A stretch of 64,000 nt of DNA. It comes from a virus. The notes under the pieces were generated by a model. The model was not told the DNA's origin. It searched no databases and saw nothing but the letters and a program-made list of their open reading frames with translations. The translations under genes were made by a program, and so were the position numbers. The DNA is taken from positions 4,816-68,815 of the IMG/VR virus record IMGVR_UViG_3300045988_146009. One strand, 5' to 3'. Below, one piece after another: positions 11,942 through 27,150 of this stretch. The stretch's first letter is position 1; every line of letters starts with the position of its first letter.

Positions 11942-11945
11942 TAGA

Positions 11946-12305
11946 TTAAAGAAGGGGTTTAAGGTGTTTATAAATACTGGAATTAACCGCGGCGGGATAA
12001 ATATGTTTGACTATTTTGGTAAATCCCATTGCTGGTTTAACGCTAGTCTGAACAAGAAACTTTGTACTTCTCCTGGAGTATAACCTCTGCACATTAGCAG
12101 GATAGATTACATCGGGGAGGGTAGTGTTTACGTCAAAGGTAGAGTATAGATTCTTAATGTACGTAACGGCCTCTTCGGGCGAATAGGTCAGGAGGTATCC
12201 TACTATCCTCAAATAACGTAAACTCTCCTGTTGTACTATCACGATATAGCTCTCCTCAGCCGTCAAGAGCAAATCGTAGGTTAAGTATTTTTCTTCTTTG
12301 TTCAT
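11946..12305 (-). CDS. hypothetical protein, diverged paralog
   Basis: 119 aa. IVGYLLTYSPEEAVTYIKN resembles the EEAIS motif of its neighbours. Confidence 0.45.
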   Translation of the reverse strand: MNKEEKYLTYDLLLTAEESYIVIVQQESLRYLRIVGYLLTYSPEEAVTYIKNLYSTFDVNTTLPDVIYPANVQRLYSRRSTKFLVQTSVKPAMGFTKIVKHIYPAAVNSSIYKHLKPLL

Positions 12306-12352
12306 ATGTCTTACTATAGTATGTGATTTTTAAATGTCGAGATTATTTTTTG

Positions 12353-13150
12353 TCATTCTCTTTCAAGAAACTTAATCTCGTCATATTTTGATTTGACTTT
12401 TTCAAGGAAGGATTTGAGCATAGCTTTTTCTAATTTGGTAGCCGTCCGTGGAAGTCTAAAATGATTCAGGGTTTGTCCTGTATGTCCTTTCTTTCCAGAG
12501 TTCTCGTTAACAAGAGATACCATAACAGGAATACGGGAGGTGTTGCTTACCCTAAAATAGGTGTGTTGGTCAGGTGTCCCGTTAATATCTACAAAATTTA
12601 TATCCTCAATCCTTTTCATAACTTCCTCAAATGTTTTGAAGATACTAATCTCGATGGCTTGAGAATGTGTAGTTGTTTCCCTGTAGAAAGTGAGAGCATA
12701 CTTGTCTTCTAGCTGTAGATAATGCACGGAGAAGGTTACATGGATTCCATTATCCTTACGGTTTTCCCTCTCAATAAAAGCCTTGGTTTCATCATATAGT
12801 TCGGTTACTTTCAGCCATTCGTCAAGAGAAGGAGGGCCCTCCCGGTATTCACCTATGAATACTTCGAGTTGTCCTATGTCGCTAAGACAAAGCTCAACCA
12901 GAACATGAAGATTCTTAAAACGAAGGAATTCTTTGGTGGCTTCTATCTCGTCTCCGTATGTACCAAAAGGAATTTTGTTCCTGCTCTTGCAAAACTTAAT
13001 GACATAATCCAATTTCCTATGACTCATAACCCCCAAAACTTTGAAGGAATACATGCCGGAAGAAGTCGTCTCTTCGGTTGCTACCCCCACATACTTTTTT
13101 GATTGAGGGTGATAGTACAGGCCAAAGGTAATGTGTTTCAGGTTCTTCAT
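12353..13150 (-). CDS. hypothetical protein containing two copies of the paralog-family domain
   Basis: The N-terminus MKNLKHITFGLYYHPQ and an internal HVTFSVHYLQLEDKYALTFYRETTT..FEEVMKRIED both match the family motif. The start could instead be at 13264 (109-nt overlap with the upstream gene). Confidence 0.5.
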   Translation of the reverse strand: MKNLKHITFGLYYHPQSKKYVGVATEETTSSGMYSFKVLGVMSHRKLDYVIKFCKSRNKIPFGTYGDEIEATKEFLRFKNLHVLVELCLSDIGQLEVFIGEYREGPPSLDEWLKVTELYDETKAFIERENRKDNGIHVTFSVHYLQLEDKYALTFYRETTTHSQAIEISIFKTFEEVMKRIEDINFVDINGTPDQHTYFRVSNTSRIPVMVSLVNENSGKKGHTGQTLNHFRLPRTATKLEKAMLKSFLEKVKSKYDEIKFLERE

Positions 13151-13155
13151 CTTAA

Positions 13156-13737
13156 TTACAGGGGCATTCTTGAAACGATAGTGAGTTCCTTGGAAAGAAT
13201 AACGGAGGCCCATGAGAGGCGCATATACTTTGCAAGTTCCGTCAGGAGGTTGAGGCTCAAACAAGCGGTATTTCCAAGCCGTCTTTCGGGCTCTACTCCG
13301 TTCTTGTCCAGACTGATACTAAGGTGAAGAGCAAGGAAAGCCAGGGCCAGCTTTGGAAGATTCTCACATTCCTTTAGAAGGCTTGCCACCTGCTTTTTGT
13401 CCAACGTTGAATAAGAACTCCTGTTCTCCATGTCAATACCATGGCCGTGAATCTTGGCAAGGTTTTTATTGTAGCAATGCAAGGCGCGGGTGAATGAAGA
13501 GTTGAATACATGGTTCAAGTCCTTCCGGTGTTCACTACAGAACTCAATGGGGTTCTCAACCCGGCACAAAGTAATAGCATCCTGAATCAGAAATGCCTTA
13601 GAAGTTGCGGGAACCATAAGGCCAAACAATACATTTTCAGGCGTTGTTTTTTCAGTATAGGCCCGTTCAATAAGAGTCTTGCTGGTTCCTTCTTCGGTAA
13701 AGTTGAATTCGTTTTTGGAAATATTATCGTTCATCAT
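13156..13737 (-). CDS. hypothetical protein
   Basis: 193-aa ORF. Confidence 0.45.
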   Translation of the reverse strand: MMNDNISKNEFNFTEEGTSKTLIERAYTEKTTPENVLFGLMVPATSKAFLIQDAITLCRVENPIEFCSEHRKDLNHVFNSSFTRALHCYNKNLAKIHGHGIDMENRSSYSTLDKKQVASLLKECENLPKLALAFLALHLSISLDKNGVEPERRLGNTACLSLNLLTELAKYMRLSWASVILSKELTIVSRMPL

Positions 13738-13896
13738 TTTTATATAGGTTATTAAGTAGGTTAATGTTGCTTTTAGGATTCTGTAGTTGCAGGATGGATT
13801 TTCTAAAAAATAGAATGAGGGCTAGGCTAGCTGGAATCAATACCGCCAGAATGGACATGAATGCTATTAACAGTAGAACCAAGAAAAGAATCTTCA

Positions 13897-14475
13897 TCAT
13901 AGAGTTATCTTGCTTGTGTCAAGTTTGTTCTTCAAATAATCCAGTTCACGGGGGGTTAACTTGTTAAATTGGAACACCTTAATTCTTTGTTCGTCAAGCA
14001 TAAGAGGCTCTTTATCATTAACAATAAGCCTTCTCTCCTTGTTGAGGGGTTTCCGGGTTATGGTGTTGATTTGTGAAAGAGTCCGCATAGCCACCCCGAA
14101 AGATTGCGCTTGAAAATGCCTGATTATTTTGTAAGTTGTACTATTATAAATCTGGACATACAATTTAGAGTCAGGCAAGCGGTGAATGCTGAAACTCTTT
14201 TCCGGAGACATAGGCGTAATTTGGTAGTCAATAATTAGGGAATCCCCTTCACGGACTACAAAGCCGTCAGTCAAATTCTCCAGCATTAAGTGCGCCATGG
14301 AGATAATGCAAGGTACTGGATTGGCAAACCACACTTTCATTTTGTAATGGCAATTATATTCAGTCTTCATCTGCGTGCAACTAGGACCATATACCCTCAC
14401 ATCCTTACTACTGAAATAACAGAGGGTTAGAAGTTGAGACTGCCATGCACGAAGGCAGTTCATTTTATTGGTCAT
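13897..14475 (-). CDS. hypothetical protein
   Basis: 192-aa ORF. Confidence 0.5.
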   Translation of the reverse strand: MTNKMNCLRAWQSQLLTLCYFSSKDVRVYGPSCTQMKTEYNCHYKMKVWFANPVPCIISMAHLMLENLTDGFVVREGDSLIIDYQITPMSPEKSFSIHRLPDSKLYVQIYNSTTYKIIRHFQAQSFGVAMRTLSQINTITRKPLNKERRLIVNDKEPLMLDEQRIKVFQFNKLTPRELDYLKNKLDTSKITL

Positions 14476-14758
14476 AATTTTTATTGAGTAGGTTATAAAG
14501 TTCTGTCCAGGTTTTTACTTCGTTGATAAGTTCCTTTTTGAAGAAGGCAACCCTTGCATAGGTTGGAGTGGCGATTAAGACCGCCATGCGGTGAGGTGAA
14601 TGAAAAAGCCGTCTCTGAAATGTGGGGAAGAGTTCTTCCCTGTTATTGTGATAAAGCTCCACATAGACCACGGGAAAGGCATTGGAGATTTGTTTTTCTC
14701 TGCTCTCCTTCTTCCGGAACCCTATGCTTTCAAGCTCTAAAATGTAGCCATCAATCAT
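14465..14758 (-). CDS. hypothetical protein
   Basis: 97-aa ORF overlapping both neighbours. Confidence 0.45.
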   Translation of the reverse strand: MIDGYILELESIGFRKKESREKQISNAFPVVYVELYHNNREELFPTFQRRLFHSPHRMAVLIATPTYARVAFFKKELINEVKTWTELYNLLNKNYDQ

Positions 14759-15432
14759 TTTGCAAAGAAGTTAGACGTTGACCGGATATAGGGGCGGGTA
14801 TAGTGCAGTCTCATGTTAGGGTAAACTTCCTTTTCCAATACGTCTTCCAACTCATAAGAGCTTTTCAAAACTTTCTGAATAAGGACTTTGGCTTTTTCTA
14901 CCGCTTTAGAATGGTTCTTGAAAGCTTCTTCAATCTTGACAAGCTCACTGTTCACGAAGTTTATGCACTTGTCCAGTTCCGTTTTAAAGTTAGGGTTAAG
15001 CCGTCCATTTTGCGAAGTGGTAATACCCTCCAGAACATACCGTTCATAACGGGAACTCCATGTGTCTTCCCCGTAAATATCCTTAACTCCGGTAGGGAGC
15101 ATGACGCGCAGGGAAATAGCGGGGAAGAAGGTGCGTGAAGAATAGTTGTCTACGCTTCCCGGAGCAAGGACGCTTGCCCCTCTAACATAATCATCTCCTC
15201 GGAAGTGCCTATTGAGAATATGACTAACATTACTCCAATCCTTTTCCCTCATAACCTTAAATTCGCCTGACTTTGTTTTAAAATCTGGACTGTCAAAAAC
15301 GACTTTGAGATATTCAAGTGCATCCTTAAGCCGTTCATAGAAATATTGAAGTCCTTTCAAGTCACGCATGGCCTTATCATCTTCTTCAACGAATTTCCGA
15401 ATAAAGTAGTTCATCATATCATTATTATTCAT
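14755..15432 (-). CDS. hypothetical protein
   Basis: 225-aa ORF, ATGA-coupled to the downstream gene. Confidence 0.55.
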   Translation of the reverse strand: MNNNDMMNYFIRKFVEEDDKAMRDLKGLQYFYERLKDALEYLKVVFDSPDFKTKSGEFKVMREKDWSNVSHILNRHFRGDDYVRGASVLAPGSVDNYSSRTFFPAISLRVMLPTGVKDIYGEDTWSSRYERYVLEGITTSQNGRLNPNFKTELDKCINFVNSELVKIEEAFKNHSKAVEKAKVLIQKVLKSSYELEDVLEKEVYPNMRLHYTRPYIRSTSNFFAK

Positions 15433-15464
15433 TTCTTTTTGTCTTTCTATTTTTGTTTGTAGTT

Positions 15465-16157
15465 TTAGAGATTGTAGAATTTAATATATTCTTCCCTGCT
15501 TTTAAATGTCCTCACCTTCCCCCCGTGACCGTTGTATACGATTGTTTCAATTCCTTCGCCATTCGAACGGTTGTCATAAACATGAATAGTAGAGCCGTCT
15601 TTTAAAGTAAAAGCCGTAGCAATTCCCTTATACTTAGGGTTTTTACGGGAGACTACACTGCGTGCGAGGTTGTAATTAGTATACACACGCCCCATTTTTT
15701 GAGGCCACGGGTATGGGGTGCTATCCAGGCTCATAAACACATGGTCCATGCCGTTAGGATAGGAAAAGAAGTCCCATTTTTCCGGAGCTAGTTCGGCATC
15801 CCATTTGACTAGGTGAGTTAGCGAAAATTGGAACTGTGCATAAAACGGAACCAAATCCTCAAAGGCGAAAAGGAAACGTGCTCCCTGCTCAATAGCGTAC
15901 TTAACCATTTTTTTACCAAATCCTTTCCCCTGGAATAGGTGAGAGACTATGAGGGAAACAAGTTCCCCCTCCGCGGTTATCGAAAATACTCCGACGATGG
16001 AGCCGTCATTTACTAGCCTGAAACACTTGCATCCATTATCCCTGTACCAGTCACCGGGGTAAACGTCAACATGTACCTGATTCATGTCTGACAGATAATG
16101 GCGCAGTTCCCCTGCAAGGCTCTCCATTGCATAAGGATTTATCTTTTCAATATACAT
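15465..16157 (-). CDS. GNAT-family N-acetyltransferase fused to a C-terminal domain of unknown function
   Basis: SLIVSHLFQGKGFGKKMVKYAIE matches the GNAT acetyl-CoA binding motif (Q/R-x-x-G-x-G/A). There are 110 further residues after it. Confidence 0.5.
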   Translation of the reverse strand: MYIEKINPYAMESLAGELRHYLSDMNQVHVDVYPGDWYRDNGCKCFRLVNDGSIVGVFSITAEGELVSLIVSHLFQGKGFGKKMVKYAIEQGARFLFAFEDLVPFYAQFQFSLTHLVKWDAELAPEKWDFFSYPNGMDHVFMSLDSTPYPWPQKMGRVYTNYNLARSVVSRKNPKYKGIATAFTLKDGSTIHVYDNRSNGEGIETIVYNGHGGKVRTFKSREEYIKFYNL

Positions 16158-16250
16158 TTTCTTTTGTCTTTCTGTTTGTTGTGCCGGACGTTTTGGCCTC
16201 CGGCTCGCCTTACATGAACAGTTATACCATAGGAGCAGGGAAAAACAAGA

Positions 16251-17090
16251 CTAATCTTTTTTGTCTTGTGTCATACACCAATTAAACGCCGCTTTACCTT
16301 GTTCAGAAATGGCCCATGGACTAAAAGAACGGTGGACAATACGGGGGCGGGTAACCACTTCTGCTAGAATACATCCATCTTCTTCCATGCTTTTATTACA
16401 ATTGCATGGCATAGGGGTTCCCTTGCATTCTCCTCCCCTGTTTTTACGAATATGGCTCTCATAATCCATTGTTAGTAGCAATTCCTTTAACTCTTTCATG
16501 GCCTTATAATTATGGATAGGGTAAGCCATTCGCAAAGAGGTAGAGCTAAAATTCTCTGACTCTAAATAGATTGTGAGATAAAACTCCTTATTCTCCGTGT
16601 TTTCCGTAACGTGTGCAGTATACACGGCTTCCTCACCCTCCAAAATGTTCACAACGTCAGCCTCATACTCAATATATTGAGTTTCAGGGAGTTCTTCCGT
16701 TTTTGCAGGTTGTTTCGGAGCGTCCTTAATGGGCGTAGCGTACACATCAACCGTTGCACAGGGGAGGCCAAAACAGGGATATTGATTAAAAGAATCCTCC
16801 GTTCCCTCAATTTCGACAATTACCTTCCATTCAGCGCGGAAATCGTCAAGTTCAGCGCGGTCTTCCTCGCTAAGTTCGCCTTCATCATCTCCATACCCCA
16901 TTAAATAAGGGAATGCCCATTGAGGAACGCCCTCAACCCTTTCGTAACTGTCTGACGTTTCATCCGTTTCAGATAAGATAATGTACGTACTTCCGCAATG
17001 GGGGCATAGTCCGTTTAGAGGCGTAACGCTTCGGTTATCGCATTCCATGCAGTCATATTTTTCGTTTTCGTCGATAATAACAGTGCTCAT
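16251..17090 (-). CDS. acidic protein with N-terminal zinc ribbon (CxxC...CxxC) and C-terminal Cys cluster
   Basis: 279 aa. CMECDN..CPHCGS at the N-terminus, very Asp/Glu-rich in the middle, CNCNK...C at the C-terminus. Confidence 0.5.
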   Translation of the reverse strand: MSTVIIDENEKYDCMECDNRSVTPLNGLCPHCGSTYIILSETDETSDSYERVEGVPQWAFPYLMGYGDDEGELSEEDRAELDDFRAEWKVIVEIEGTEDSFNQYPCFGLPCATVDVYATPIKDAPKQPAKTEELPETQYIEYEADVVNILEGEEAVYTAHVTENTENKEFYLTIYLESENFSSTSLRMAYPIHNYKAMKELKELLLTMDYESHIRKNRGGECKGTPMPCNCNKSMEEDGCILAEVVTRPRIVHRSFSPWAISEQGKAAFNWCMTQDKKD

Positions 17091-17107
17091 TTTTATGTTT
17101 TCTATTT

Positions 17108-17215
17108 TAGTTTGTTGGTTGGTTGCGGGGTTGTGTTCCCCTTACGCAATCCTTTATATTATATTAGAGGGGAAACGCAAGGGAAATGTTCATGCCTTGT
17201 GTCATACTTAACTGT
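17108..17215 (-). promoter_or_regulatory. copy 1 of a ~90-bp repeated promoter-like cassette ending in GTATGACACA (minus-strand orientation)
   Basis: Near-identical blocks at 17108-17215, 18938-19035 and 19968-20080. Shared segments: GGTTGTGTTCCCCTTACGCA, TTTGAGCAGG, AATGTTCATGCCTTGTGTCATAC. Each lies between two minus-strand genes. Confidence 0.55.
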
Positions 17216-17517
17216 TAAGGCTTTACGAGGTATTCTTTATAAATCTTCAACGCTTCTCCATGCGTTCTTGGTGCTTCATTCCCATCTATGGCTCCCCACA
17301 TGCTTAATATTTCAAAGTTCGTTTCCGTCCTTTTCATGGACAAAACGGCATAAATGTTATACTTTAGTTGTCCATCTTTCCGGAAAGCCTTGTCTTTAGG
17401 TATGTCATTGTCTATAGCTAATGGGCCGTTAAACGGTTGCTTGAAAAACTTAAATTCCGTAACTTCCTCATTTGCATAGGGGTACAAATCTTTCGTCCAA
17501 TAATATACTTTTTTCAT
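17215..17517 (-). CDS. hypothetical protein
   Basis: 100 aa. The start is preceded 10 nt upstream by the palindrome GTTCCACGTGGAAC. Confidence 0.5.
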   Translation of the reverse strand: MKKVYYWTKDLYPYANEEVTEFKFFKQPFNGPLAIDNDIPKDKAFRKDGQLKYNIYAVLSMKRTETNFEILSMWGAIDGNEAPRTHGEALKIYKEYLVKP

Positions 17518-17526
17518 TTTAGGATT

Positions 17527-17540
17527 GTTCCACGTGGAAC
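17527..17540. promoter_or_regulatory. perfect 14-bp palindrome GTTCCACGTGGAAC (copy 1), operator-like
   Basis: Identical palindrome again at 20080-20093. Both copies lie directly 3' of a minus-strand gene and 5' of the next one. Confidence 0.45.
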
Positions 17541-17561
17541 ATTTTAGTTATTGATTTGTGA

Positions 17562-18074
17562 TTAGGCGGTTATAGTCTTTTTGACTGATAGAGTCAAATG
17601 GTAGCGGGTAAAACAAGCTCCTGTATCCGAATCATAAGAACAATTGGCCCGCAACTCTTCATGTTCTGCTTCAACCATTTCCGCTAGTTCGTTAGGCGAA
17701 CAATCCAGAACAGGGGTGTACGCCTCAATTTTGGTGAGGAAAAAGTTGGCTTCAATTTCTTTTGTCTTCCCTCCGTTCTTTCTTACAAGGTTTTCCACCG
17801 TGCCTAGTGCCGCGGTCAGAATCTCCTTGCGTTTATCCTGCAATATGGTAATAATCGCAAGCGGCTTTCCTTCAATGCGTTGGATACGGGAACAAACCAA
17901 AAAGCCTTGTTTGTGCAATACATTTAAAGCAACGTCTTTTTTGTCCACCGGAACGGCAATGCGTCGAATGTTGTGCTCTACCTGCTTCTCCGTTGCTGAT
18001 TGCAGGTCATAAACCTTACAACCTAAGCCTGTTAAGGTATTCAGGATGATTTTTGAAAAAAAGTCTTTACGCAT
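17562..18074 (-). CDS. hypothetical protein (start at internal Met; the ORF extends to 18131)
   Basis: Starting at 18131 would overlap the upstream gene by 65 nt. The Met at 18074 gives an 8-nt overlap. Confidence 0.4.
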   Translation of the reverse strand: MRKDFFSKIILNTLTGLGCKVYDLQSATEKQVEHNIRRIAVPVDKKDVALNVLHKQGFLVCSRIQRIEGKPLAIITILQDKRKEILTAALGTVENLVRKNGGKTKEIEANFFLTKIEAYTPVLDCSPNELAEMVEAEHEELRANCSYDSDTGACFTRYHLTLSVKKTITA

Positions 18075-18300
18075 CTTTTTGAATAAGCCATGTTGTTTCG
18101 GTAGTTTCCCGGTCAAATCCAATGCTTGCATAAGACGGCCCTACAAAGTCACTGACTTCACGGACGATTTTAATGTCTGGACCTGCTTTAGCTAAAACCC
18201 TTAATAGCAGGTTCTTTCCGGGTTTAAAAGAGAGTTCTACTTTTTCAACTCCTTCCCGGTTGTTCAAATGGCTTAATGCTTCAAATAGTTTCTTGTTCAT
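18067..18300 (-). CDS. hypothetical protein
   Basis: 77-aa ORF. Confidence 0.4.
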   Translation of the reverse strand: MNKKLFEALSHLNNREGVEKVELSFKPGKNLLLRVLAKAGPDIKIVREVSDFVGPSYASIGFDRETTETTWLIQKDA

Positions 18301-18305
18301 GTTTT

Positions 18306-18722
18306 TTATGCGTTAAAGTTAAAGGCTTTTTGAATATTTTTCCCCTGTACCGTTACGGACGTGAGGGAATACATTTTATACTGCAACATGTGTATGTTTT
18401 GTTCAGACTTTAGGGCAAGGATTTTTGAATCATACTTGTTTGTCTTATCAATCGCCACCTCTACCACGGCACAATAGGCAAACCATAAGAGAGTTAATGC
18501 GCTTGCGTAAACTCCAACGATACAAAAAAGCTCCGTTACGTTGGTTCCGTTGTAAATCTTGGTTGCCAAAATGATGACAAGAATAAAGGCAAGCCATGCA
18601 GAGATTCTTTCAAAGTTCAATCCATCCAAGGCCCTATATATTCCCCGCCACCTTTTAAATGAGCGGGTGAGTTCCGAAATCTCACGGGCGTGAACAAAGC
18701 TAGCGTAAAAAGCGTATTTCAT
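18306..18722 (-). CDS. membrane protein (2-3 TM helices)
   Basis: Hydrophobic stretches WLAFILVIILATKIY and FCIVGVYASALTLLWFAYCAVV. Confidence 0.5.
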   Translation of the reverse strand: MKYAFYASFVHAREISELTRSFKRWRGIYRALDGLNFERISAWLAFILVIILATKIYNGTNVTELFCIVGVYASALTLLWFAYCAVVEVAIDKTNKYDSKILALKSEQNIHMLQYKMYSLTSVTVQGKNIQKAFNFNA

Positions 18723-18727
18723 AAATG

Positions 18728-18928
18728 TTAGAAGTTAAGGGCCGATATAAAACGCTTCATTTCAGCGATAGAGGTGCATTCAAATGTTAGTGCTGGATTC
18801 CAATTTGAGCGGAAAATAAATCCTCCCTCCGTTTTCTGAACATAGGCAAAGGTGGAGAGCAATTCTTCCCTATCATGGATAAAGCTATTTTCCAGTCTGT
18901 CCAGAGCATCAATGTCTTTCTTATTCAT
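18728..18928 (-). CDS. hypothetical small protein
   Basis: 66 aa. Preceded by the conserved upstream sequence CTAAAATAGAAAA. Confidence 0.45.
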   Translation of the reverse strand: MNKKDIDALDRLENSFIHDREELLSTFAYVQKTEGGFIFRSNWNPALTFECTSIAEMKRFISALNF

Positions 18929-18937
18929 TTTTCTATT

Positions 18938-19035
18938 TTAGTTTTAGGCGGTTGCCTCGTTACGTGTTTCTTTATAACATTTTTGAGCAGGTAAACAAGG
19001 AAAATGTTCATGCCTTGTGTCATACTTCACTGTTA
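18938..19035 (-). promoter_or_regulatory. copy 2 of the ~90-bp promoter-like cassette (GTATGACACA at 19025-19016)
   Basis: See copy 1. Confidence 0.55.
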
Positions 19036-19040
19036 ATCAG

Positions 19041-19376
19041 TTATGCAGAAAAATTAAAATTTAGCATATCCGGGTGCGTGGTAAATTGTAGTTGTCTATC
19101 CTCAAAAATGACAAATCCTAAGATGTTGCTATCAATACTCATTCTCTTTTTTAACTCTATAGCGAGATTGTGGAGGACGGTATGCCCGCATAAGGTCCAC
19201 GCTAGCATTGCGTGGCTTACAAGCTCCCCTGCATCATTCCGGGTTATGGGGTGGATGTGGATGCCTTGTCTTCCAACGTCATCATACAAGTCCCACAACA
19301 TAAATTGGTTATCATACACAATGCAATCCGGGAAAATCTCCTTCAAATCCTGCAAATATTCTTTTATTTCTTTCAT
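19041..19376 (-). CDS. hypothetical protein (His-rich motifs)
   Basis: 111 aa with HIHPITRNDAGELVSH and GHTVLH motifs. Confidence 0.45.
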   Translation of the reverse strand: MKEIKEYLQDLKEIFPDCIVYDNQFMLWDLYDDVGRQGIHIHPITRNDAGELVSHAMLAWTLCGHTVLHNLAIELKKRMSIDSNILGFVIFEDRQLQFTTHPDMLNFNFSA

Positions 19377-19403
19377 GGTTCTATGTCTTTCTAATTTAGG
19401 GGT

Positions 19404-19739
19404 TTAAACTAAGTCAATAGCGCGTAAAAACAAACGCTTGTCATGGTCAAAATAGGTCCACCCGTACTTTCCGAGGTTGTATCCGGCTACTTTCCTATCT
19501 CCATGTATCCGGTGAGGCATCCATTCGACACTGATATTTTCTTCCCCTACCCCGTGGATGACGGCATGAGTTCCTTCCTCCATCAATTCCCGGAGGGTTC
19601 CGAAACGGACAAAACTGCGGGCAACTTGGTAGTGTGTATGACCTTCCTTTTTGTAATACTCTTCTGCAAACTTATGCAGGCCCTTGCTTGGTTTTTGTAT
19701 GATTATCATTGTTTTATGTCTTTCCAGTTTATTTTCCAA
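19404..19739 (-). CDS. hypothetical protein (His-rich motifs)
   Basis: 111 aa with GHTHYQ and THAVIHGVGEEN motifs. A 27-nt spacer carrying the conserved upstream element separates it from the downstream gene. Confidence 0.45.
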   Translation of the reverse strand: MENKLERHKTMIIIQKPSKGLHKFAEEYYKKEGHTHYQVARSFVRFGTLRELMEEGTHAVIHGVGEENISVEWMPHRIHGDRKVAGYNLGKYGWTYFDHDKRLFLRAIDLV

Positions 19740-19950
19740 GGGATATTTTAGTAAGGGCCTCCCTCATTTTCTCCATGCTAGCGGCGTATATAAAATGACG
19801 CACAAGGGGAGTTGCATCCGTGCGGGTTGCAAGATAACCTAACCCTGTTTTATCAATCCAATAAGGCACTGATTCCAGAGTTATCCTTGCCCCTTCTGCC
19901 CCTAATTTTTCCAGCTCCAATAGTGCTTTTAAATCGTTGGATGTTAACAT
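19729..19950 (-). CDS. hypothetical small protein (start trimmed)
   Basis: The ORF-track start at 20016 falls inside the repeated cassette. The Met at 19950 is preceded by CTAAAATAGAAAGATACAAGAAA, as in other genes of this block. Confidence 0.4.
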   Translation of the reverse strand: MLTSNDLKALLELEKLGAEGARITLESVPYWIDKTGLGYLATRTDATPLVRHFIYAASMEKMREALTKISLGK

Positions 19951-19967
19951 TTTCTTGTATCTTTCTA

Positions 19968-20080
19968 TTTTAGTTCGTTGCTTGGTTGGTTGTAGGGTTG
20001 TGTTCCCCTTACGCATTCTTTATAGCATCTTTGAGCAGGGGCACAAGCGTTTTATTTCACGTTTGTGTCATACAAAATTG
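19968..20080 (-). promoter_or_regulatory. copy 3 of the ~90-bp promoter-like cassette (GTATGACACA at 20075-20066)
   Basis: See copy 1. The second copy of the 14-bp palindrome (20080-20093) follows immediately. Confidence 0.55.
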
Positions 20081-20096
20081 TTCCACGTGGAACTTT

Positions 20097-20789
20097 TTAT
20101 CTCTCCGCATGTTCTTTTACCTTGTCACGTTTAACCAACGGCAAGACGGGAGGAAACACCCCGCTTGCGTAGTCCTCCCGGCTAACTCCCTGCCAAGCAT
20201 AACCTTTGTATGTAGGCTGACGGCGTTTTACTACGTTGTTAATTCCAGCCGCTAACCCCTTTACCGCCCGCGCCGCATCCCAGTAACTAGGATACATGGT
20301 GATAGGCTCCAGGGTTTCCCGGTTTATCTGCATGACGGGCCGCGCGGATTTGTGCAATCCCTTTTCAATGTTCCCCTTCAATGTCTTTTTCCGTTTTTTC
20401 ACGCAGTTACCGTAACGTATGTTTTCCCGGTGAGTACACCATTGCAGATTCTCCGCACGGTTGTTCATGGGGTTTTCATCTAAATGGTTTACATCTAACT
20501 CGCTTATTTTGTACCCTTTAAGATGCGCGCCTAACGGCACAAACGCACCCGCAACAAGGCGATGAACATAATATTTATAGTGCCATCCTCCCTTTTCATC
20601 CAGCAAGGGAACATATTTATAACCGTTCCGGCTAGTCTGGATGCGTAAAAGCCTGTTGACAAGCTTGCTCCACACCGCGCCCATGTTACTCACAAGGTAC
20701 AATTCCCTGCAACCTTTCAGCGGTACAGGTTCCCACAGTTCCCCCGGTCTAGTACATTCAGCTAGTGTCTTCTTCTCCTTCTTCTTCAC
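20097..20789 (-). CDS. free-standing HNH homing endonuclease
   Basis: ELDVNHLDENPMNNRAENLQWCTHRENIRYGN is a classic HNH_3 His-Asn-Asn-His core. The N-terminal region resembles the NUMOD4/AP2-like DNA-binding part. Confidence 0.75.
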   Translation of the reverse strand: MKKKEKKTLAECTRPGELWEPVPLKGCRELYLVSNMGAVWSKLVNRLLRIQTSRNGYKYVPLLDEKGGWHYKYYVHRLVAGAFVPLGAHLKGYKISELDVNHLDENPMNNRAENLQWCTHRENIRYGNCVKKRKKTLKGNIEKGLHKSARPVMQINRETLEPITMYPSYWDAARAVKGLAAGINNVVKRRQPTYKGYAWQGVSREDYASGVFPPVLPLVKRDKVKEHAER

Positions 20790-20974
20790 TTATCAATCCC
20801 TTTCCTGCTTTTAATCCCTTTCAATTTCTCTCCTAATTCTTTAAGCCGCGCTTCTTCTTCCGTAAGCTTTCGATTCCCCTGCTTAATCCCTCGGTTTATG
20901 CGCCTAAAATCCTCGGAGAGTTTATCCAGTTTCCGCCTCAACTCTATAAACTGTTCGGTACTGTTAATTGCCAT
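20786..20974 (-). CDS. small coiled-coil protein
   Basis: 62-aa ORF, ATGA-coupled to the HNH gene, Lys/Glu/Arg-rich helix. Confidence 0.35.
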   Translation of the reverse strand: MAINSTEQFIELRRKLDKLSEDFRRINRGIKQGNRKLTEEEARLKELGEKLKGIKSRKGIDK

Positions 20975-21399
20975 GTCTCCTTTATATAGTAGGCACGCCG
21001 TTTTTCAAGCTTTTTGTGCGCCATTTCCCCGCTTTTCAAGCTTTTTATAGTGTACCGCAATTGTTGCGTTAGCCCTAAAAACTGCACCATTACTGTTACT
21101 TTTGGCTTTCTTTGGACTTTCTCCCGAATTCCTTCGCACAGAAAGGGGCCTATAAGGGCCTTTTGAGCAGGGAGCCTTACTATTATACCCGGCGATTTTG
21201 CCCGCCCGTATACGCAAACCTCATGCGTTTTATTTTCGCCAATTCCGCACTTTTCGCCCTAAACGTACTAAGTGCACCTAAAATGGTACATAAATCATCC
21301 ATTCGTAACGGAAAGAGTACTATTCACTTTTTATACAACTGTATACATTCTGGCATTTCGTACCGTTATAGGTACTGGTTCGTATCATTTCCGTGCTAT

Positions 21400-22100
21400 A
21401 CGCCCTAAACGGTCTTCCCGTTCGTGTAGGGAGTAATGGGCATTTCGTCCTTTTCGTTCGTGTAGGGCGTGGAGTCTGCTACGTCATTCCGGTCCATGTA
21501 GTGCATTCCGTTCACTTCGTTCTTCCGTCCTTCTGGTCCATGTAGTTCGATTAGGGCGTGTAGTGCGTATAGCTCCATCTAGGGCATTCCATCCTTTCAG
21601 TCCCTATAGTTCGATTAAGGCATTCCGTTCACTTCGTCCTTTAAGTCCGTATAGTGCGTTTAGTGCGTTTAGTGCGTTTAGAGTTTTACATTTTTGTAAA
21701 ATATCAACATATCATGATGTGTAAATATGTTGTTTCCTATTGACCCCTTCACTACATATCGGGGCATATAATGGGAGAGACACACTATATGTAGTGTTCT
21801 CTGCTCTATCAGGCACCAATCATTTTGACGAATATCAAAATGTAAAACTAAAAATTTATACGTTTGAGAGGTTTTGTATAAAGATTATATACACTTGTAT
21901 ACAAAGTGAGAGTAAAAGGTATTTGTTTCCCATTGGCACCATACATCATGTAGTGCCTATTGGTTACGGGAACACTACATACAGGAGTCATGATAACATA
22001 TCTACATATCATGATATGATGATGTTTTACATTTTTGTAAAACTAAAAGGAGAGAAGCCTCTTCTGTTTCCTATTGACCCCTTTATATTTCAGAGCAGGG
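21400..22100. repeat. iteron / palindrome-rich control region (candidate replication origin)
   Basis: Direct repeats TTCGTTCGTGTAGGG (21416, 21463) and GCATTCCGTTCACTTCGT (21513, 21620). Tandem 10-mer TAGTGCGTTT x3 (21652-21681). Recurring ATGTAGTG. Palindrome TTTTACATTTTTGTAAAA at 21685 and 22026. TGTTTCCTATTGACCCCTT at 21730 and 22065. CATATCATGAT at 21708 and 22004. Inverted repeat CACTACATAT...ATATGTAGTG at 21750-21796. Confidence 0.6.
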
Positions 22101-22339
22101 AAATTCCAACACTCCGGACTTCACGCACTAAACGTCACTTTACGTTCTAAGTCAACACGTTACGCATATCCGCAACCGATTAGGCATTACAAACGTTTCT
22201 CGAAATTATCTCTTAAAAAACAAATGTTATTTCATAGTACGTATTGATTATTAGGGACTTACGTTTTCAATGTCGTACATAAACGTAATGATAATATTAG
22301 TTCAGAAAGGTACGCTATCGGCGTAGAATACAATAAGCC

Positions 22340-22720
22340 CCCTGAAAAAGGTACTTGAATCGGTGCATTTCGAGCGTGAAAATCGCTTAGAACGTGAAGG
22401 ACACCACGACGGTGACTCCCCCTTCGAGCGTAACGCGCTCATTAGTAAATCATTAGGTCACATTTTTCCGGAAATGGGGTTTCTGCTTTTTCAAAATGGG
22501 CCCCATGCCGAGGGGACACCACGGGTCTCGATTGCCTTTTCCTGCTCCGGCGTGGGCCTAAAATAGGCGAGAGGGGGTACGTATGGACAGACTGTACGTG
22601 AACGGGGGTGTGAGGGGCCTTCTATGGGCCTACGCATAGGTGAGTGCGGTTGAGGTCATTTAGCCCGGAAGGTCCATATTGGGATGGAAATTCCTGAACT
22701 ATTTTCATAACTGCCTCAGT
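22340..22720. other. GC-rich non-coding island with internal direct repeats (possible structured RNA or protein-binding array)
   Basis: No credible ORF (the 67-aa ORF at 22363-22566 is low-complexity). Repeats: GGACACCACG x2, TTCGAGCGT x2, TGGGCCTA...ATAGGYGAG x2. Local GC is much higher than the flanking DNA. Confidence 0.35.
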
Positions 22721-22789
22721 GATAATCATTTTATGGAGCAGGGAAGTCCAAATAATCCGATTGTGTGATGATGTGTATATTTTGAATAC

Positions 22790-23005
22790 GAGATAACTTC
22801 ACTCTCCAGGTTACGCCCTAAATCCTTAATTTTTAATAATATATAAATACTGTGTACTATGTAATATCTAATTACTATATAGAGGTATAAAAATATTTAT
22901 TATTTAATATAAAAATAATACCAAAAAAGAAAAGAAGAAAAGACGAAATTGAAAAAGTAAAAAAAAATAATTCTAGGTCTATATGGGGGAGGGGGGAATA
23001 ACAAC
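22790..23005. other. extremely AT-rich tract (about 85% A+T) ending in a G-tract (GGGGGAGGGGGG), a DNA-unwinding-element candidate
   Basis: Visible base composition. Contains A9 and A6 runs. Confidence 0.5.
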
Positions 23006-23358
23006 ACACACTATGCCCCTTTTTTTCACTGCTTGTATTTACATATTAAAGGGTTATGGTGTGAAAAGACACGTAAATATCGTGAATACGCATCTGCACA
23101 CTTTTTGATACAGTAACACAAGTTTTCACCACGTTATCCCAAATTTATACCTGTTTTAACCCCATTTTGTACATTACCATTATATCTTGGGATATTCTGT
23201 TATTCTCTAAAAAACACCAAATCGAATCGCCCTACACGCCCTAATCGTACCTAAGCGGACCCTATCGCACTCCACGTTCTCTACGTCCTCTTCCTCCCAA
23301 AACCCCCTCTTCGCCCCTCTCCTCCCCAACTTTTTCTCTCCGCACACGCAAATTTAGG

Positions 23359-23387
23359 TTGACTCTTTCTCTGCTACCTGCTATATC
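23359..23387 (+). promoter_or_regulatory. candidate sigma70-type promoter (TTGACT, 17-nt spacer, TATATC) about 80 nt upstream of the primase-helicase gene, inside a polypyrimidine tract
   Basis: The sequence is visible, but its relevance depends on the host sigma factor. Confidence 0.25.
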
Positions 23388-23466
23388 TCTCCCACACGCG
23401 AAGGACCTGTTTTACCCCTTCGCACCACCAAATGCCACATCCTATGTGGCCAAACACTAATCGAAC

Positions 23467-26400
23467 ATGAACCCCGTAGAATACGATAAGCCCACTTCGG
23501 GCGGTACGGACCTGACCATTGTAGCCTTGTCTGCTCAGTCATGGTCCACCTGTTATAGACGGAATACAGCCCGCCGAGCCCATGTGGGGAGTTGTAAAAA
23601 CCCCGCACTTCTCCCATTTTCCAAGCTGGCAAGCTTCCTGCAAAGTGGAGATAACCATAATCTTTCCCTGCTCGAAGAAGTAAGCAATCAAATTTCAGTA
23701 CACTACTGTATCTCAAATGGTATTAAACCTGACGAAGTTGAGGGCATTTTGCCGGACGGGGTGTACAGTTATGGCTTGAAAAGCTTGAGCGGGATGGAAA
23801 AAGAGGAGGCGGCGAAGATTTCAAAAGCCCACCTCCCGGCTATTGTCCCCTCTGTTATTTTCGACCCTTCCTACAGCTATGCCGACATGTCCCCGAAGAA
23901 AGCCGTCTCCTACTACGGCGAAAGCTGGAAGCATACCGGAGTCTTCGGATTTGACATTGACCTGGGCAAGGACGGCAACACGGACGATGCGGACGAGTTG
24001 TACGATATGGGCGTTTCTTTCTTTTCCACCCTGCCGGGCTTCCTGCTCCTGTTCCGCAGTCCCAGCGGTGGATTGAAGGTGCTCATACAGGTAGACGGAG
24101 CTACGCGGGTTCGGTTGAACGAAGGAAGTAACGAAGGAAGAATTGCGTTGCACAAGGCCATCTACAAGCGGATTAGCGAGGGGATTAACGAGAGTGCCCC
24201 GTTTATTCTTGATTCCCGCACCAACGATGTAGCCCGGATTCAGTACCTTTACCGGGAACCGGGCTACGTATATGTACCATCCGAATTAGATTCGAATGGT
24301 ACATACTCGGGGTTGGGCCATTGGGATGCACGGGATATTTATGCGGAGAAGGATGCGGATTCCCTCCATTTGCTGGACGAAGAAAACCGAAAGGCTTTGC
24401 CTTCCAGCTTGTTGGGCTTTATATCCTACCTGCACGATACGGGCTACACGAACTACGCGGAGCACCTGGAAGGTAATCTCGTAGGGTATGCGGACGGGTT
24501 CAAGTGTTCCTGCCCCTGCTGTGTTGAAGAAGCGGGAGGGCAGGTAGGCAATATGGACTTGTGGTTCATACCGGGCGACGGGGACATGAATACGTGGAGA
24601 GTGACCTGCTTCCATGAGAGCTGTAAGACCGGGAAGGGCACTAAGACCGGGAAGGACATTACCAGCATGGCCGAGCTATACCGCGGGTATGAGAGCTATT
24701 TAAGCGAGAAGGTAAGCAACCTAACTAGCGAAGCGGTAGCCTCGGCGAAGGAAAAAGAAAAGGAGCCGGAAGAAGGGGAAGAAAATATAGCGTTCGATTA
24801 CATGCGGGACTACATTACCTCCCTGCTCCAATCCAACAGCAAGACCCGTTACCGGGTGAACCCTCCTTACAGCACTGAGCAGATACTTGAGGGCGCGAAG
24901 CCCTGGGCTGGCAAGCTTATCATGGAAGAATATACCGTGAAGAGCAAGGGCCGCCCGAAGAAGGGAGAAGAAGGAGAAGAGGGCGGCGAGAAGAAGGAAA
25001 GGCCCGCGATTTGCCGGGAGAACCTTGAAATCATCCTTGCTGAATGCTTTGACATCTTCGTTACCTACAATACTGTTTCCCAGGAATACTGGGCGATTGA
25101 TACCAAGAACAGGTACGTATCCAACTGCTATAGTATCGACCAGTTCCGGAAACCGCTGGCCTATGCTGTTCATGAGTTCGTGTACAAGCCGTTCGGGGTA
25201 GCCTACGGGATGGTGGATGTTGAGCTTGAACGCGCCCTTCCAGTCATCGGCAATAGCCATTACTTCAATCCATTCCTGAAAATGATTGAGTATGATGATT
25301 GGGATGGGAAGGAGGACCGGGTGGGGAGGTTTATTGACATCCTCATTTCGGCGGTTGACCCGGCGTGGAGCCTTGATGGTGGAAGCGGAGAACTTCTGAA
25401 CAAGATAAAGGCAGACATCGAACGGGACCCGAAGGGGGCTGAGAAGATTGGTTTGACCGAAGCCCTGGTGGACCCGAAGGAATACACGAGGGAGGTGATG
25501 AAGACATTCCTCGTTTGTGCCTACCGGAAATACATACATGGTTGCGAACCCCACATGTACACCAAGGCCGAGGAGCACGACAACATGTGCCCTGTAATTT
25601 ATGGTGAGCAGGGGGTGGGGAAGAACACGCTGATTGAAAGTCTTGTTACCGTGCTTGGTGAAGGCTATCTGTGGAACCCTTCCGGCCTCCGTGACATCAG
25701 TGGGGATAACAAGGACAACAACATGAAGGCTTCCTCCTGCCTTATTGCCCACCTGGACGAAGTGGACAAGTATACTGAGGGGGAAGAAGCGATTAGCACG
25801 TTGAAGCAGGTCATCACGAGCAAGACCAACAAGATTCGTCTTCCTTTTGCCCGGCACTTGCAGGACCTCCCTGTAAAAGTCAGCTATATCGGAAGTACGA
25901 ACAAGAGTGCTTTCCTGCTTGATGCCAGCGGAAACCGACGCTTCGCTACCATCATCACCAAGGGGGGCTACAACATGAATGAAATCCAGTGGCTACGTGC
26001 TACCAACATCTGGCCCCAGGTAAAACGGATGGCGGAAGAAGACGAGAACGTAGGCCGCTACGGGTGGTACAAGCTACAGAAGATAACCGAGCATAACAAC
26101 TCAACGAACGTAATGAGCGAAGGGACCGATGTGGCCTTACTGGAACTTCTGGTTGATGCCAGCGACATCATGGATACCAAGGGCCACATTCTTCTTCGTC
26201 ACGTTAGTCAGGAGTTCTCCAACTACACGACAATCCTGGAGACCCTACGCTCTATGCAAGGGTCTACCAAGCGTGTTACCCGGAACGATGTAATGAGATT
26301 TACGAACGACATCATCAAAAAGTACGAGTTGAGCGATAGGTCCGATTTGTACAAGAGGGTCCGAAAGACTCTTTCCGGCAAACGCCCAGGTTCCACTATC

Positions 26401-26830: not shown

Positions 26831-26979
26831 TCTCTTCTATTCGATAGTGTTAGCCCCAGGTAGCCCATGTTGGTTGCCTGGGGCCCCTTTGTATACGCAT
26901 AGGTTTATGCGTATATAGTATGACAAAAAGGATGGAGATTGTTCTTGAAATAATGACTACGCGGTGGTAGGGTCTGTTC

Positions 26980-27150
26980 ATGGACACAGAACAAGATGAA
27001 TGGAAATCCTGCACGACTTGCGCTTATGCCATCTGGCCAGGAGCTTCCTACCCCTGCTCGGTTTGCAACTATAAGGACATGTGGGTTCCACAGGAAGGGG
27101 ACGGGGACGAAGAAGATTCCAAACATGGGGGTGAAGCCGAGTACGAATAA
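26980..27150 (+). CDS. small zinc-ribbon protein (not in ORF track, 56 aa)
   Basis: MDTEQDEWKSCTTCAYAIW...CSVCNYKDMW has two CxxC pairs and an acidic C-terminus. Confidence 0.4.
   Translation: MDTEQDEWKSCTTCAYAIWPGASYPCSVCNYKDMWVPQEGDGDEEDSKHGGEAEYE

Follow-up and report, generated by a model that had tools for sequence, protein, structure and literature searches.

A repeated, oriented 10-mer stands at two fixed distances upstream of sigma-70-type promoters in an uncultivated phage

Three intergenic blocks on the minus strand of an uncultivated phage genome (about 69 kb, encoding PolA and a VapE-type primase) share the 10-mer GTATGACACA, and this locus raises the question of whether the word is a promoter, a binding site for a regulator, or a chance repetition. 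A count on both strands of the window (the 64,000-nucleotide stretch analyzed here) found 8 exact copies, compared with 0.07 expected from shuffled sequences, and none of the shuffles reached 8. With up to one mismatch allowed, 14 matches were found against 2.75 expected, and GTATGACACA is the most over-represented 10-mer in the window. The preliminary description of this DNA had held that the word does not recur by chance, which these counts bear out. The copies that it placed at 7151 to 7160, 17198 to 17207, 19016 to 19025, and 20064 to 20073 (minus strand) and at 38980 to 38989 and 51130 to 51139 (plus strand), as well as a variant at 26918 (plus strand), were all recovered, while the one given as 16275 to 16266 exists but is shifted by one position (16276 to 16267).

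Seven of the 8 exact copies lie upstream of a gene and point in the same direction as that gene, in agreement with the earlier claim of co-orientation, and the orientation of the copies tracks transcription on both genome arms. The word is asymmetric and mostly found between genes, its only dyad part being a 3-bp TGT..ACA; conservation is limited to 10 to 12 nt, and the flanks differ among independent copies. Five of the 8 copies fall within a block of genes of unknown function (6.3 to 21.6 kb), and two promoters in the structural gene block are also marked by the word. Several copies are placed right after stop codons or terminators. The word had been described as always intergenic and 10 to 110 nt upstream of a start codon; the actual distance to the ATG is 42 to 113 nt, the copy at 16267 overlaps the end of open reading frame (ORF) 16251-17090, and an additional exact copy (47375 to 47384, minus strand) is an orphan that lies antisense inside ORF 46932-47540 with no promoter core downstream.

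The gene-proximal copies are followed, after a gap of 8 or 17 to 18 nt, by a sigma-70-type core composed of cTTGnnn, a 16-nt spacer usually ending in TGn, and TAtAAn. The seven gene-proximal exact copies and the 26918 variant all place TTG or TTT at a gap of 8, 17, or 18 nt, with TA a further 19 nt on. A randomly chosen position would show such an arrangement with probability 0.008, and the probability that 8 of 9 sites do so is about 1e-16. When four window copies were aligned with two from related phages, only GTATGACACAA, CTTG, and the region around the -10 element were left as invariant blocks. With start sites predicted 7 nt after the -10 element, the word would occupy about -52 to -43 (8-nt gap) or -61 to -52 (17- to 18-nt gap), centered near -47 or -57, while the TTG at -35 is retained. 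The two registers are roughly one helical turn apart, differing by 9 to 10 bp rather than 10.5, and an A/T-rich stretch separates the word from the -35 element in the 17-nt gap class only. In four copies the -10 element ends 6 to 10 nt before the ATG of a real ORF, which suggests that the four mRNAs are leaderless or nearly so. Promoters without the 10-mer show this geometry as well, so that the hexamers behave as genuine -10 elements. Noncoding DNA, 11% of the window, holds 14 of the 20 strong sigma-70-like matches, a concentration with P about 1e-9. A generic sigma-70 consensus scan of positions 6000 to 23500 found 31 matches against 35.3 expected from shuffles, and because this is no enrichment, the promoter calls rest on positional conservation and not on consensus score. 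The phage has 8 to 9 bacterial-type promoters with the 10-mer at one of two fixed upstream distances.

Terminators abut or enclose the 10-mer at three copies with the 8-nt gap. Copy 1 (7151 to 7160, minus strand) precedes TTTACA (7142-7137)-N16-TGcTATAGT, with the -10 element at 7120-7115 and the ATG at 7105, 9 nt after it; an intrinsic terminator with a 13-bp stem and UUUUAUUUU stands directly upstream (7169 to 7198, minus strand; -24.5 kcal/mol). Copy 6 (38980 to 38989, plus strand) precedes TTGATA (38998)-N16-TGgTATAAC, with the -10 element at 39020-39025 and the ATG at 39036, 10 nt after it, and is itself directly preceded by a hairpin with a U-tract (38943-38977, plus strand; -23.5 kcal/mol). 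Copy 7 (51130 to 51139, plus strand) lies, as had been noted, within a terminator, in the loop and upper stem of a hairpin at 51116 to 51152 (plus strand; -29.4 kcal/mol). Its -35 element TTGCTT (51148-51153) overlaps the 3' arm and U-tract of this terminator, its -10 element TATCCT (51170-51175) ends 6 nt before the ATG at 51182, and the terminator encloses the 10-mer without altering its 8-nt distance from the -35 element. A possible degenerate copy with 2 mismatches, GAATGACAAA (12349 to 12358, minus strand), stands exactly 8 nt upstream of TCGACA-N16-TATAGT, a putative promoter of the leaderless gene 11946-12305, at borderline significance (about 0.05).

Copy 2 (16267 to 16276, minus strand) has an 18-nt gap before TTGTTT (16248)-N16-TGgTATAAC (-10 element at 16226-16221); it overlaps the final 8 codons of ORF 16251-17090, and 109 nt lie between it and the ATG of a GNAT gene (16157). 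The one-mismatch variant GTATGACAAA (26918 to 26927, plus strand) has a 17-nt gap before TTGAAA (26945)-N17-TGgTAGGGT (-10 element at 26968-26973), and the ATG at 26980, 6 nt after the -10 element, opens a 56-amino-acid (aa) CxxC ORF (26980-27150). The proposal that the word follows terminator T-tracts holds for 7151 and 38980 and not for 16267, which no terminator precedes. Strong terminators are present at 7151, 38980, and 51130, no stem-loop was found upstream of 16267, 17198, or 19016, and only a weak hairpin (GTTCCACGTGGAAC; -7.4 kcal/mol, z -1.6) precedes 20064.

The three blocks that first drew attention are cassettes in which the 10-mer and its promoter are joined to a 5' untranslated region (5'UTR) with a 5' hairpin, a CAACC-rich leader, and AAACTAAAATAGAAA. 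All lie on the minus strand between small genes of unknown function, and their CA-rich leaders lack a Shine-Dalgarno sequence, with AAACTAAAATAGAAA before the ATG. Cassette 3 (17091 to 17225) contains copy 3 (17198-17207), a 17-nt gap, TTGCGT (17180-17175), N16, and TATAAAG (17158-17152), followed by a 5'UTR with a GGGG..CCCC hairpin, CAACCAACCAAC, and AAACTAAAATAGAAA before ATG 17090, the start of a DUF6926 gene. Cassette 4 (18929 to 19043) contains copy 4 (19016-19025), a 17-nt gap, TTGTTT (18998-18993), N16 ending in TGt, and TATAAAG (18976-18970), and its short 5'UTR carries a small hairpin and AAACTAAAATAGAAAA before ATG 18928. Cassette 5 (19951 to 20093) contains the palindrome GTTCCACGTGGAAC (20080-20093), copy 5 (20064-20073), a 17-nt gap, TTGTGC (20046-20041), N16 ending in TGc, and TATAAAG (20024-20018), with a 5'UTR homologous to that of cassette 3 and a likely true ATG at 19950; a gene for an HNH homing endonuclease (20097-20789) adjoins it.

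The blocks had been called near-identical, but their segments are similar only pairwise, and each segment groups them differently. The 17-nt gap is shared by 17198 and 19016 (16/17 identical; 5 to 6/17 for either against 20064), the 16-nt spacer by 19016 and 20064 (13/16, against 8/16 with 17198), and the 5'UTR by 17198 and 20064 (55/68, against 33/61-69 with 19016). Likewise, the three words once ascribed to all blocks are not common to them, as 17198 lacks TTTGAGCAGG, 19016 lacks GGTTGTGTTCCCCTTACGCA, and 20064 lacks AATGTTCATGCCTTG. Cassettes 3, 4, and 5 are clearly paralogous mosaic modules that share segments pairwise and have exchanged them by recombination.

About 16 other promoters in the window carry the consensus TTGAC(A/T) and no 10-mer. 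Compared with this set, which was selected by score, promoters with the 10-mer match TTGACA at fewer -35 positions (3 to 5 of 6, against 5 to 6 of 6). Six of the 8 promoters with the 10-mer have TGn before the -10 element, compared with about 1 of the 16 score-selected promoters without it (P 0.001).

Seven related phage contigs keep one orthologous copy of the 10-mer promoter. Across the six aligned copies, variable positions number 0 of 11 in the 10-mer region, 0 of 6 in the -35 element, 0 of 9 in TGcTAAATT, and 6 of 13 in the spacer, and the seventh copy (contig L135) has yet another spacer. The 16-nt gap beside the 10-mer is also almost invariant in these relatives (2 of 16 positions variable), so that part of the conservation could reflect recent common ancestry. 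Each relative has one copy only in the approximately 36 to 40 kb examined, which suggests that the multiple copies in this phage are partly due to recent cassette spread. In these relatives, the orthologs of the GNAT and DUF6926 genes are preceded by consensus TTGACA promoters in which upstream A-tracts take the place of the 10-mer (-35 context GTATTGACA), and in relative L106 the word-bearing promoter cassette is joined directly to the DUF6926 gene. Among GenBank phages there was no nucleotide match, and TerL protein matches were only marginal.

A close parallel in overall organization is found in the PeSL (promoter-early stem-loop) cassettes of T4-type phages, small repeated modules that combine a terminator with a sigma-70-type promoter and mediate insertions, deletions, and shuffling (PMC2839356, Arbiol et al. 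2010; PMC4122927, Comeau et al. 2014). The modules described here likewise contain a sigma-70-type promoter, and some of them a strong terminator. In both systems the modules are interspersed among small, functionally uncharacterized genes of a variable early region, contain GGGG..CCCC stem-loops, and show signs of recombination, seen here in the mosaic cassettes and the L106 gene joined directly to one. There is, however, no homology of sequence or phage, as the phage studied here is not T4-like. PeSL promoters are consensus promoters with an A/T-rich upstream region, whereas those described here have a weak -35 element, an extended -10 element, and an exact 10-mer in two registers; moreover, the GGGG..CCCC hairpin lies here in the 5'UTR, and only 3 to 4 copies have an upstream terminator.

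The word is promoter-linked, and of the two roles first suggested for it, regulator binding is favored, while the word itself as a phage-specific promoter is not supported. We see about an even chance that GTATGACACA(A) serves as a cis-regulatory element upstream of one class of promoters for host RNA polymerase (sigma-70 type), likely bound by an activator. A sequence-specific protein, encoded by phage or host, would bind the word in one orientation and help RNA polymerase, in the manner of class I and class II activators, to start at promoters whose -35 elements are weak, and the word would set these promoters apart, as a second class, from the approximately 16 with consensus TTGAC(A/T). On this reading the word probably spread through recombination between cassettes, as in the PeSLs of T4-type phages. 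Occurrence in two registers (8 or 17 to 18 nt from the -35 element) suits an upstream factor site and not a core promoter element. The layout agrees with that of activated promoters, having an upstream site, helically phased gaps of 8 and 17 to 18 nt, and a poor -35 element (3 to 5 of 6 positions). The extended -10 element could alone offset the weak -35 element, and this makes the need for an activator less compelling.

Known activator sites include TGT-N12-ACA near -55 for Ogr/Delta of P2/P4, sites near -43.5 for Mor/C of Mu, and the marbox of MarA/SoxS, which is an asymmetric monomer site. Promoters of the Ogr/Delta and Mor/C type also combine a short specific site at about -43 to -61 with host RNA polymerase and a poor -35 element, and orientation and helical register matter in them. 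The phage also encodes, at 26980-27655, several very small CxxC zinc-ribbon proteins that are broadly comparable to Ogr in size. In contrast, no homologue of Ogr, Mor, C, or AraC-type proteins was identified here, and the site is not a dyad apart from the 3-bp TGT..ACA. T4 MotA middle promoters likewise form a second promoter class from a phage word and a host -10 element, often extended; the MotA box replaces the -35 element at about -30, whereas the word here stands 8 to 18 nt upstream of a retained -35 TTG. No DNA-binding protein or activator was identified among the scanned ORFs; nearly all early ORFs lack a family match, and none of roughly 45 matches a known DNA-binding family. A bolder form of the activator reading, possible and offered tentatively, is that a new, structurally unrecognized phage transcription factor recognizes the word and, from either of two helical registers, brings in host RNA polymerase. 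Its regulon would be expanding (one copy in relatives, 8 to 9 here), the promoter cassette having spread by recombination, with replacement of the consensus early promoters at the GNAT and DUF6926 genes.

An asymmetric multicopy intergenic word aligned with transcription on both arms also recalls the L5 stoperators of cluster A mycobacteriophages, which are 10 to 13 bp long and share a single orientation (PMC9283540, PMC6550527). A monomeric repressor might accordingly bind in one orientation and silence the adjacent promoter or stop upstream read-through, and several copies do follow stop codons or terminators, where read-through would be blocked. We consider this unlikely. Stoperators number 20 to 30 or more per genome and have no fixed spacing to promoter hexamers, and the fixed 8 or 17 to 18 nt to the -35 TTG seen here would be needless for a roadblock; a site at -43 to -61 overlaps none of the usual repressor places (-35, -10, and +1), and efficient terminators leave little read-through to stop. 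Stoperators also need the cognate immunity repressor of a temperate phage, and the ORFs scanned, drawn from all but about 1.2 kb of the genome, yielded no integrase, repressor, or other sign of lysogeny.

RNA polymerase could instead read the word directly, with the alpha C-terminal domain using it as an atypical UP element or with sigma making a second contact there. The word lies in the -40 to -60 zone of UP elements, whose subsites likewise function at two positions separated by one helical turn, and A-tracts occupy the same place in the orthologous promoters of the relatives (-35 context GTATTGACA). It also resembles an extended -35 region, gTATTGACAc minus one T, and no separate factor was found. 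Known UP elements are A/T-rich and degenerate, however, unlike an exact 10-mer with G and C, and as a -35 element the word has the wrong distance to any -10-like hexamer, being at least 32 nt from the real one. Direct reading is accordingly improbable in our estimation.

It is quite unlikely that the word has no role in transcription, either as a passive passenger of duplicated cassettes or as a recombination, nicking, or homing endonuclease site that promotes shuffling. The mosaicism of paralogous cassettes 3, 4, and 5, the HNH homing endonuclease gene beside cassette 5, and the direct fusion of a word-bearing promoter to another gene in L106 are in its favor, and a recombination protein target was also considered by the PeSL authors (PMC2839356). 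However, a recombination or nicking site needs no exact distance to a -35 element, and the orientation of the word follows transcription on both arms. Passive carriage fails for copies 1, 2, 6, and 7 and the 26918 variant, since they share with the cassettes only the word, the TTG, and the -10 element.

The main idea at the outset had been a phage-encoded RNA polymerase or sigma factor. None was found by Pfam, PHROGs, NCBIfam, PDB, or motif searches of the scanned window ORFs and 3,066 aa of a giant virion-type protein (3,284 aa, partly outside the window, without recognizable domains), and the DxDGD, Rx3Kx7YG, and HD[S/A] motifs are absent from those 3,066 aa; these searches are sequence based, and a very divergent enzyme could escape them. 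That the word is the core of a promoter for such an enzyme is very unlikely: although it often follows terminators 42 to 113 nt before genes, loosely resembles the TGACAC of the SP6 promoter, and the giant protein could hide an enzyme, only 10 to 12 nt are conserved rather than the approximately 17 to 23 nt, start site included, of T7/SP6-like promoters, only one copy lies in a hairpin, a feature of N4-like promoters, the sigma-70-type core and short-leader geometry put the start 40 to 50 nt or more downstream, and two registers do not fit a core promoter element.

As a phage regulatory signal the 10-mer is genuine but of a fairly ordinary kind, and no new biochemistry is indicated. What it provides is a regulatory map, derived from sequence alone, for an uncultivated phage lineage without GenBank relatives. 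In that map two promoter classes are distinguished, terminators lie hard against promoters, leaderless genes are widespread, and there are genes that lack a Shine-Dalgarno sequence. GTATGACACA is also a compact probe for fishing out the regulator. The PeSL idea is extended beyond T4-like phages, and the comparison with relatives shows how the block of uncharacterized early genes can be brought under new control by the spread of a promoter cassette.

The 10-mer GTATGACACA (hereafter the word) occurs as eight exact copies in the window against 0.07 expected, and 14 matches against 2.75 expected were found when up to one mismatch was allowed. It ranks first among the 10-mers of the window, which bears out the preliminary description in holding that the word is not due to chance. 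A literature search for the word returned only primers and unrelated sites. Oriented by the word, the copies read GTATGACACA(A), a gap, cTTGnnn, 16 nt usually ending in TGn, and TAtAAn. The gap between the word and the -35 element is 8 nt at the copies starting at 7151, 38980, and 51130, 17 nt at 17198, 19016, 20064, and the one-mismatch copy 26918, and 18 nt at 16267. This architecture has a frequency of 0.008 at a random position, giving a probability of ~1e-16 for 8 of 9 sites. The word lies near positions -52 to -43 or -61 to -52, two registers about one helical turn apart. It had been read as a phage-specific promoter or regulator-binding element; the conserved architecture of the sigma-70-type core found downstream indicates that it is not itself the promoter. 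Instead, the word is a real, conserved upstream element that is tied to promoters, defines a second promoter class, and has probably been spread as cassettes recombined. The word and its architecture are new, while the kind of element is already known.

The setting of the copies is less uniform than first described. The word was said to be always intergenic, but an additional exact copy at 47375 lies antisense within a gene, and copy 16267 overlaps the end of an open reading frame (ORF). No terminator precedes copy 16267, and the supposed terminator ahead of copy 20064 is a perfect palindrome of 14 bp that gives a weak hairpin. The word of copy 51130 is enclosed in a strong terminator hairpin (-29.4 kcal/mol); the -35 element overlaps both the 3' arm and the U-tract of this hairpin, and the 8-nt spacing is therefore preserved. 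CCTGCTC was considered as a second promoter word and rejected: CCTGCTC(AA) is over-represented, but most copies are Leu-Leu codons read from the coding strand of genes, and the only cassette-related copies are those in promoter spacers at 16239, 18991, 20039, and 22099.

The distance from the end of the -10 element to the ATG of a real ORF is 6 nt for ATG 51182 and 26980, 9 nt for ATG 7105, and 10 nt for ATG 39036. The ORF at 26980 encodes a 56-amino-acid (aa) CxxC protein paralogous to the products of adjoining ORFs. Leaderless geometry, with the -10 element ending 6 to 7 nt 5' of the ATG, recurs at promoters lacking the word (5581, 12340, 21008, 28475, 52548, and 56357) and in related phages, and we therefore take the hexamers to act as genuine -10 elements for a bacterial polymerase. 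Many genes of the window seem leaderless, including those behind the word-bearing -10 sites 51170 and 26968. The other four copies are followed by 5' untranslated regions (5'UTRs) of 40 to 70 nt with a hairpin at the 5' end, a CAACCAACC-type leader, and AAACTAAAATAGAAA ahead of the ATG. A perfect consensus promoter, TTGACA-N17-TATAAT, lies at 27188-27160 on the minus strand, antisense into the CxxC ORF 26980-27150 of a word-bearing promoter, and could provide antisense RNA or control by convergent transcription.

Several other promoter types were rejected. A sigma-54 site would place a TTGC-like -12 element after TGACAC-N5, and none is conserved in any copy; if the word served as the -35 element, its ATGACA would lie at the wrong distance from a -10-like hexamer in all copies except one. 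The Bacteroidetes-type -7/-33 promoter (TAnnTTTG) does not fit, and an archaeal TATA box was rejected because the ATG follows the TATA-like element by 6 to 10 nt rather than about 25 nt.

About 16 other intergenic promoters, all co-oriented with the downstream gene, have the form TTGAC(A/T)-N16-18-TAnnnT. Both TGn and, within the 30 nt upstream, the word are absent from them, with the possible exception of promoter 12340, where GAATGACAAA stands exactly 8 nt upstream at borderline significance. Of the word-bearing promoters, 6 of 8 have TGn ahead of the -10 element, versus about 1 of 16 without the word (p 0.001). Noncoding DNA, 11% of the window, contains 14 of the 20 strong sigma-70-like matches (p about 1e-9), and a generic sigma-70 consensus scan gave no enrichment over shuffles (31 found versus 35.3 expected). 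Word-bearing promoters mostly fail this generic scan because their -35 element is weak and their -10 element often ends in A or C.

We propose that a sequence-specific factor at the word would assist host RNA polymerase. An assisting factor fits a word that lies between -43 and -61 in one orientation, in two registers related by the helix, and ahead of poor -35 hexamers. In the distal class, the A/T-rich 17-nt gap would leave room for the alpha C-terminal domain. Such promoters would resemble class I and class II activation, e.g., by Ogr, Mor/C, or MarA-like proteins. The alternative that survives best is a repressor or roadblock at the word, although the fixed spacing to the -35 element speaks against a roadblock. 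Direct contact of the polymerase with the word ranks second. Less probable is that the word is the promoter of a phage RNA polymerase, against which stand the conserved core of sigma-70 type and the geometry at the start codons. Least probable is a recombination site, which the fixed spacing to the -35 element again disfavors.

Among the ORFs scanned, searches of Pfam, PHROGs, and NCBIfam gave no match to a sigma factor, helix-turn-helix domain, or polymerase that could serve as the assisting factor. One might speculate that it is a small CxxC protein encoded at 26980-27655, where the first gene lies behind a word-bearing promoter; equally speculative candidates are the early proteins common to word-carrying relatives (13897-18131). 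Very small proteins (56 to 84 aa) with paired CxxC zinc-ribbon motifs cluster on the plus strand at 26980-27655 and 28561-28815, and neither group has a family match. The giant ORF at the window start (1-5546, plus strand) encodes ~1,830 aa, the C-terminal part of a protein of 3,284 aa that extends upstream of the window (contig L078, 11078-20279). This protein contains an HExxH motif and glycine-rich hydrophobic stretches, and no sequence match in Pfam, PHROGs, or PDB and no catalytic-motif match was found in the 3,066 aa covered. Its reading as an N4-like or crAss-like virion RNA polymerase was rejected for want of profile, PDB, or motif support.

The window covers most of a phage genome of ~69 kb. 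The same sequence is present in 20 public contigs, the longest a 68,820-bp ENA scaffold; all five fetched stretches match the window at 100% identity, and all 20 contigs with the same early gene are 100% identical, leaving no variation to compare. No DNA-level similarity to GenBank phages was found, and protein-level similarity is limited to marginal terminase matches. There are no tRNAs in the phage and no Rfam matches in the window. On the minus strand, 6.3 to 21.6 kb holds ~40 small early genes, nearly all without a family match, including tandem paralogous genes of unknown function at 10861-13213 that share an N-terminal motif (e.g., TFSIYRTPGNYFRVVIYKE), of which gene 12353-13213 has two occurrences. 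From 23.4 kb, the plus strand encodes a VapE-type primase/helicase, family A DNA polymerase, SNF2-type helicase, PD-(D/E)XK exonuclease, and large terminase subunit, followed by structural genes. Two paralogous NUMOD4/HNH homing endonuclease genes lie at 20097-20789 (minus strand), directly upstream of the cassette of copy 20064, and at 31559-32299 (plus strand), between the DNA polymerase and helicase genes. The early and replication blocks are divergent and are kept apart by a 2-kb noncoding, repeat-rich region (21409-23466) that looks like a replication origin. Its repeats comprise a direct repeat of ~297 bp, GTGCGTTTAG in three tandem units, and inverted repeats of TTTTACAtttttGTAAAA; positions 22830-22970 are A/T rich. 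At the matching position, relatives L038 and L040 (~5900-8200 of each) carry more than 10 TGTGGAAA/TTTCCACA repeats resembling DnaA boxes.

Shine-Dalgarno sites precede only 12 of 71 genes under a lenient definition, and G is depleted 5' of start codons. The mix of TTGACA/TATAAT-type (non-Bacteroidetes) promoters, leaderless genes, and few Shine-Dalgarno sites is unusual for guessing a host. A 9-nt tandem repeat, CTACGCCCG, at 63928-64000 encodes Thr-Pro-Ala in a plus-strand ORF starting near 63060. From position 11614, Lachnospiraceae-like chromosomal genes take the place of phage sequence in metagenome contig L048, the switch falling exactly where this repeat starts; one of these genes encodes a GlmS with 78% identity to that of a Lachnospiraceae metagenome-assembled genome. 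Because the phage lacks Shine-Dalgarno sites, this contig was treated as chimeric and set aside as evidence of the host; the junction is probably an assembly chimera, not an integration site.

Copies 17198, 19016, and 20064 belong to modules of word, promoter, and 5'UTR that had been described as three near-identical blocks sharing three words. This was only partly right: the blocks have segments common to pairs but are not near-identical, and none of the quoted words is common to all three. In the 17-nt gap, 17198 and 19016 are identical at 16 of 17 positions, versus 5 to 6 of 17 with 20064. The promoter spacer instead pairs 19016 with 20064 (13/16; 8/16 for 17198), and the 5'UTR pairs 17198 with 20064 (55/68; 33/61-69 for 19016). 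Recombination between paralogous cassettes would give such pairwise-common segments. The perfect 14-bp palindrome GTTCCACGTGGAAC occurs twice, at 17527-17540 in a 5'UTR, 9 nt ahead of the ATG of gene 17215-17517, and at 20080-20093 between the HNH gene and the cassette of copy 20064. Its weakness as an RNA hairpin (about -7 kcal/mol) makes an operator bound by a dimeric protein look likelier than a terminator.

In T4-type phages, the repeated modules known as promoter-early stem-loop (PeSL) cassettes pair a terminator with a promoter; they flank small genes whose function is unknown, and they mediate shuffling (PMC2839356, PMC4122927). They are the closest analogue, with a sigma-70-type promoter, a setting among genes of unknown function, and recombination traces in common and the terminator shared in part; their A/T-rich upstream region, consensus strength, and homology have no counterpart in the cassettes of the window. 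Stoperators (PMC9283540) resemble the word in asymmetry and orientation rule but lack promoter-locked spacing and work through the repressor of a temperate phage.

A search with the large terminase subunit retrieved 36 related viral contigs, all from IMG/VR and mainly from sample 3300045988, with 76% identity for the closest; protein searches of viral and JGI metagenome contigs found no nearer relatives of the early region. The structural and replication regions of the relatives have no copy of the word, and the site of copy 38980 is occupied in them by a consensus TTGACA-N16-TAnnnT promoter. Exactly one copy is present in their early regions, with like architecture (17-nt gap, TTGCGT, and TGcTAAATT), followed by a 5' hairpin and an A/C-rich leader, and with diverged flanks. 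In pattern scans of viral and metagenome collections, the architecture was confined to this sub-clade, as seven orthologous copies; matches outside the clade all lie in coding sequence and were rejected as chance. Among six aligned orthologous copies, variable positions number 0 of 11 in the word GTATGACACAA, 2 of 16 in the gap, 0 of 6 in the -35 element, 6 of 13 in the spacer, and 0 of 9 in TGcTAAATT, a pattern that reads as the clear footprint of three functional blocks.

The GNAT and DUF6926 orthologues in relatives have consensus promoters with upstream A-tracts where this phage has the word. In relative L106, a word-bearing promoter directly adjoins the DUF6926 gene, an arrangement also seen in the window; compared with its siblings L046, L047, and L123, its promoter and 5'UTR (569-700) are fused to that gene with ~2.5 kb less sequence. 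L106 exemplifies a natural rearrangement at the border of a cassette. From the single copy in relatives, the swapped promoters, and the L106 junction, we thus infer that the cassette spread from one copy to eight or nine and takes part in gene rearrangements.
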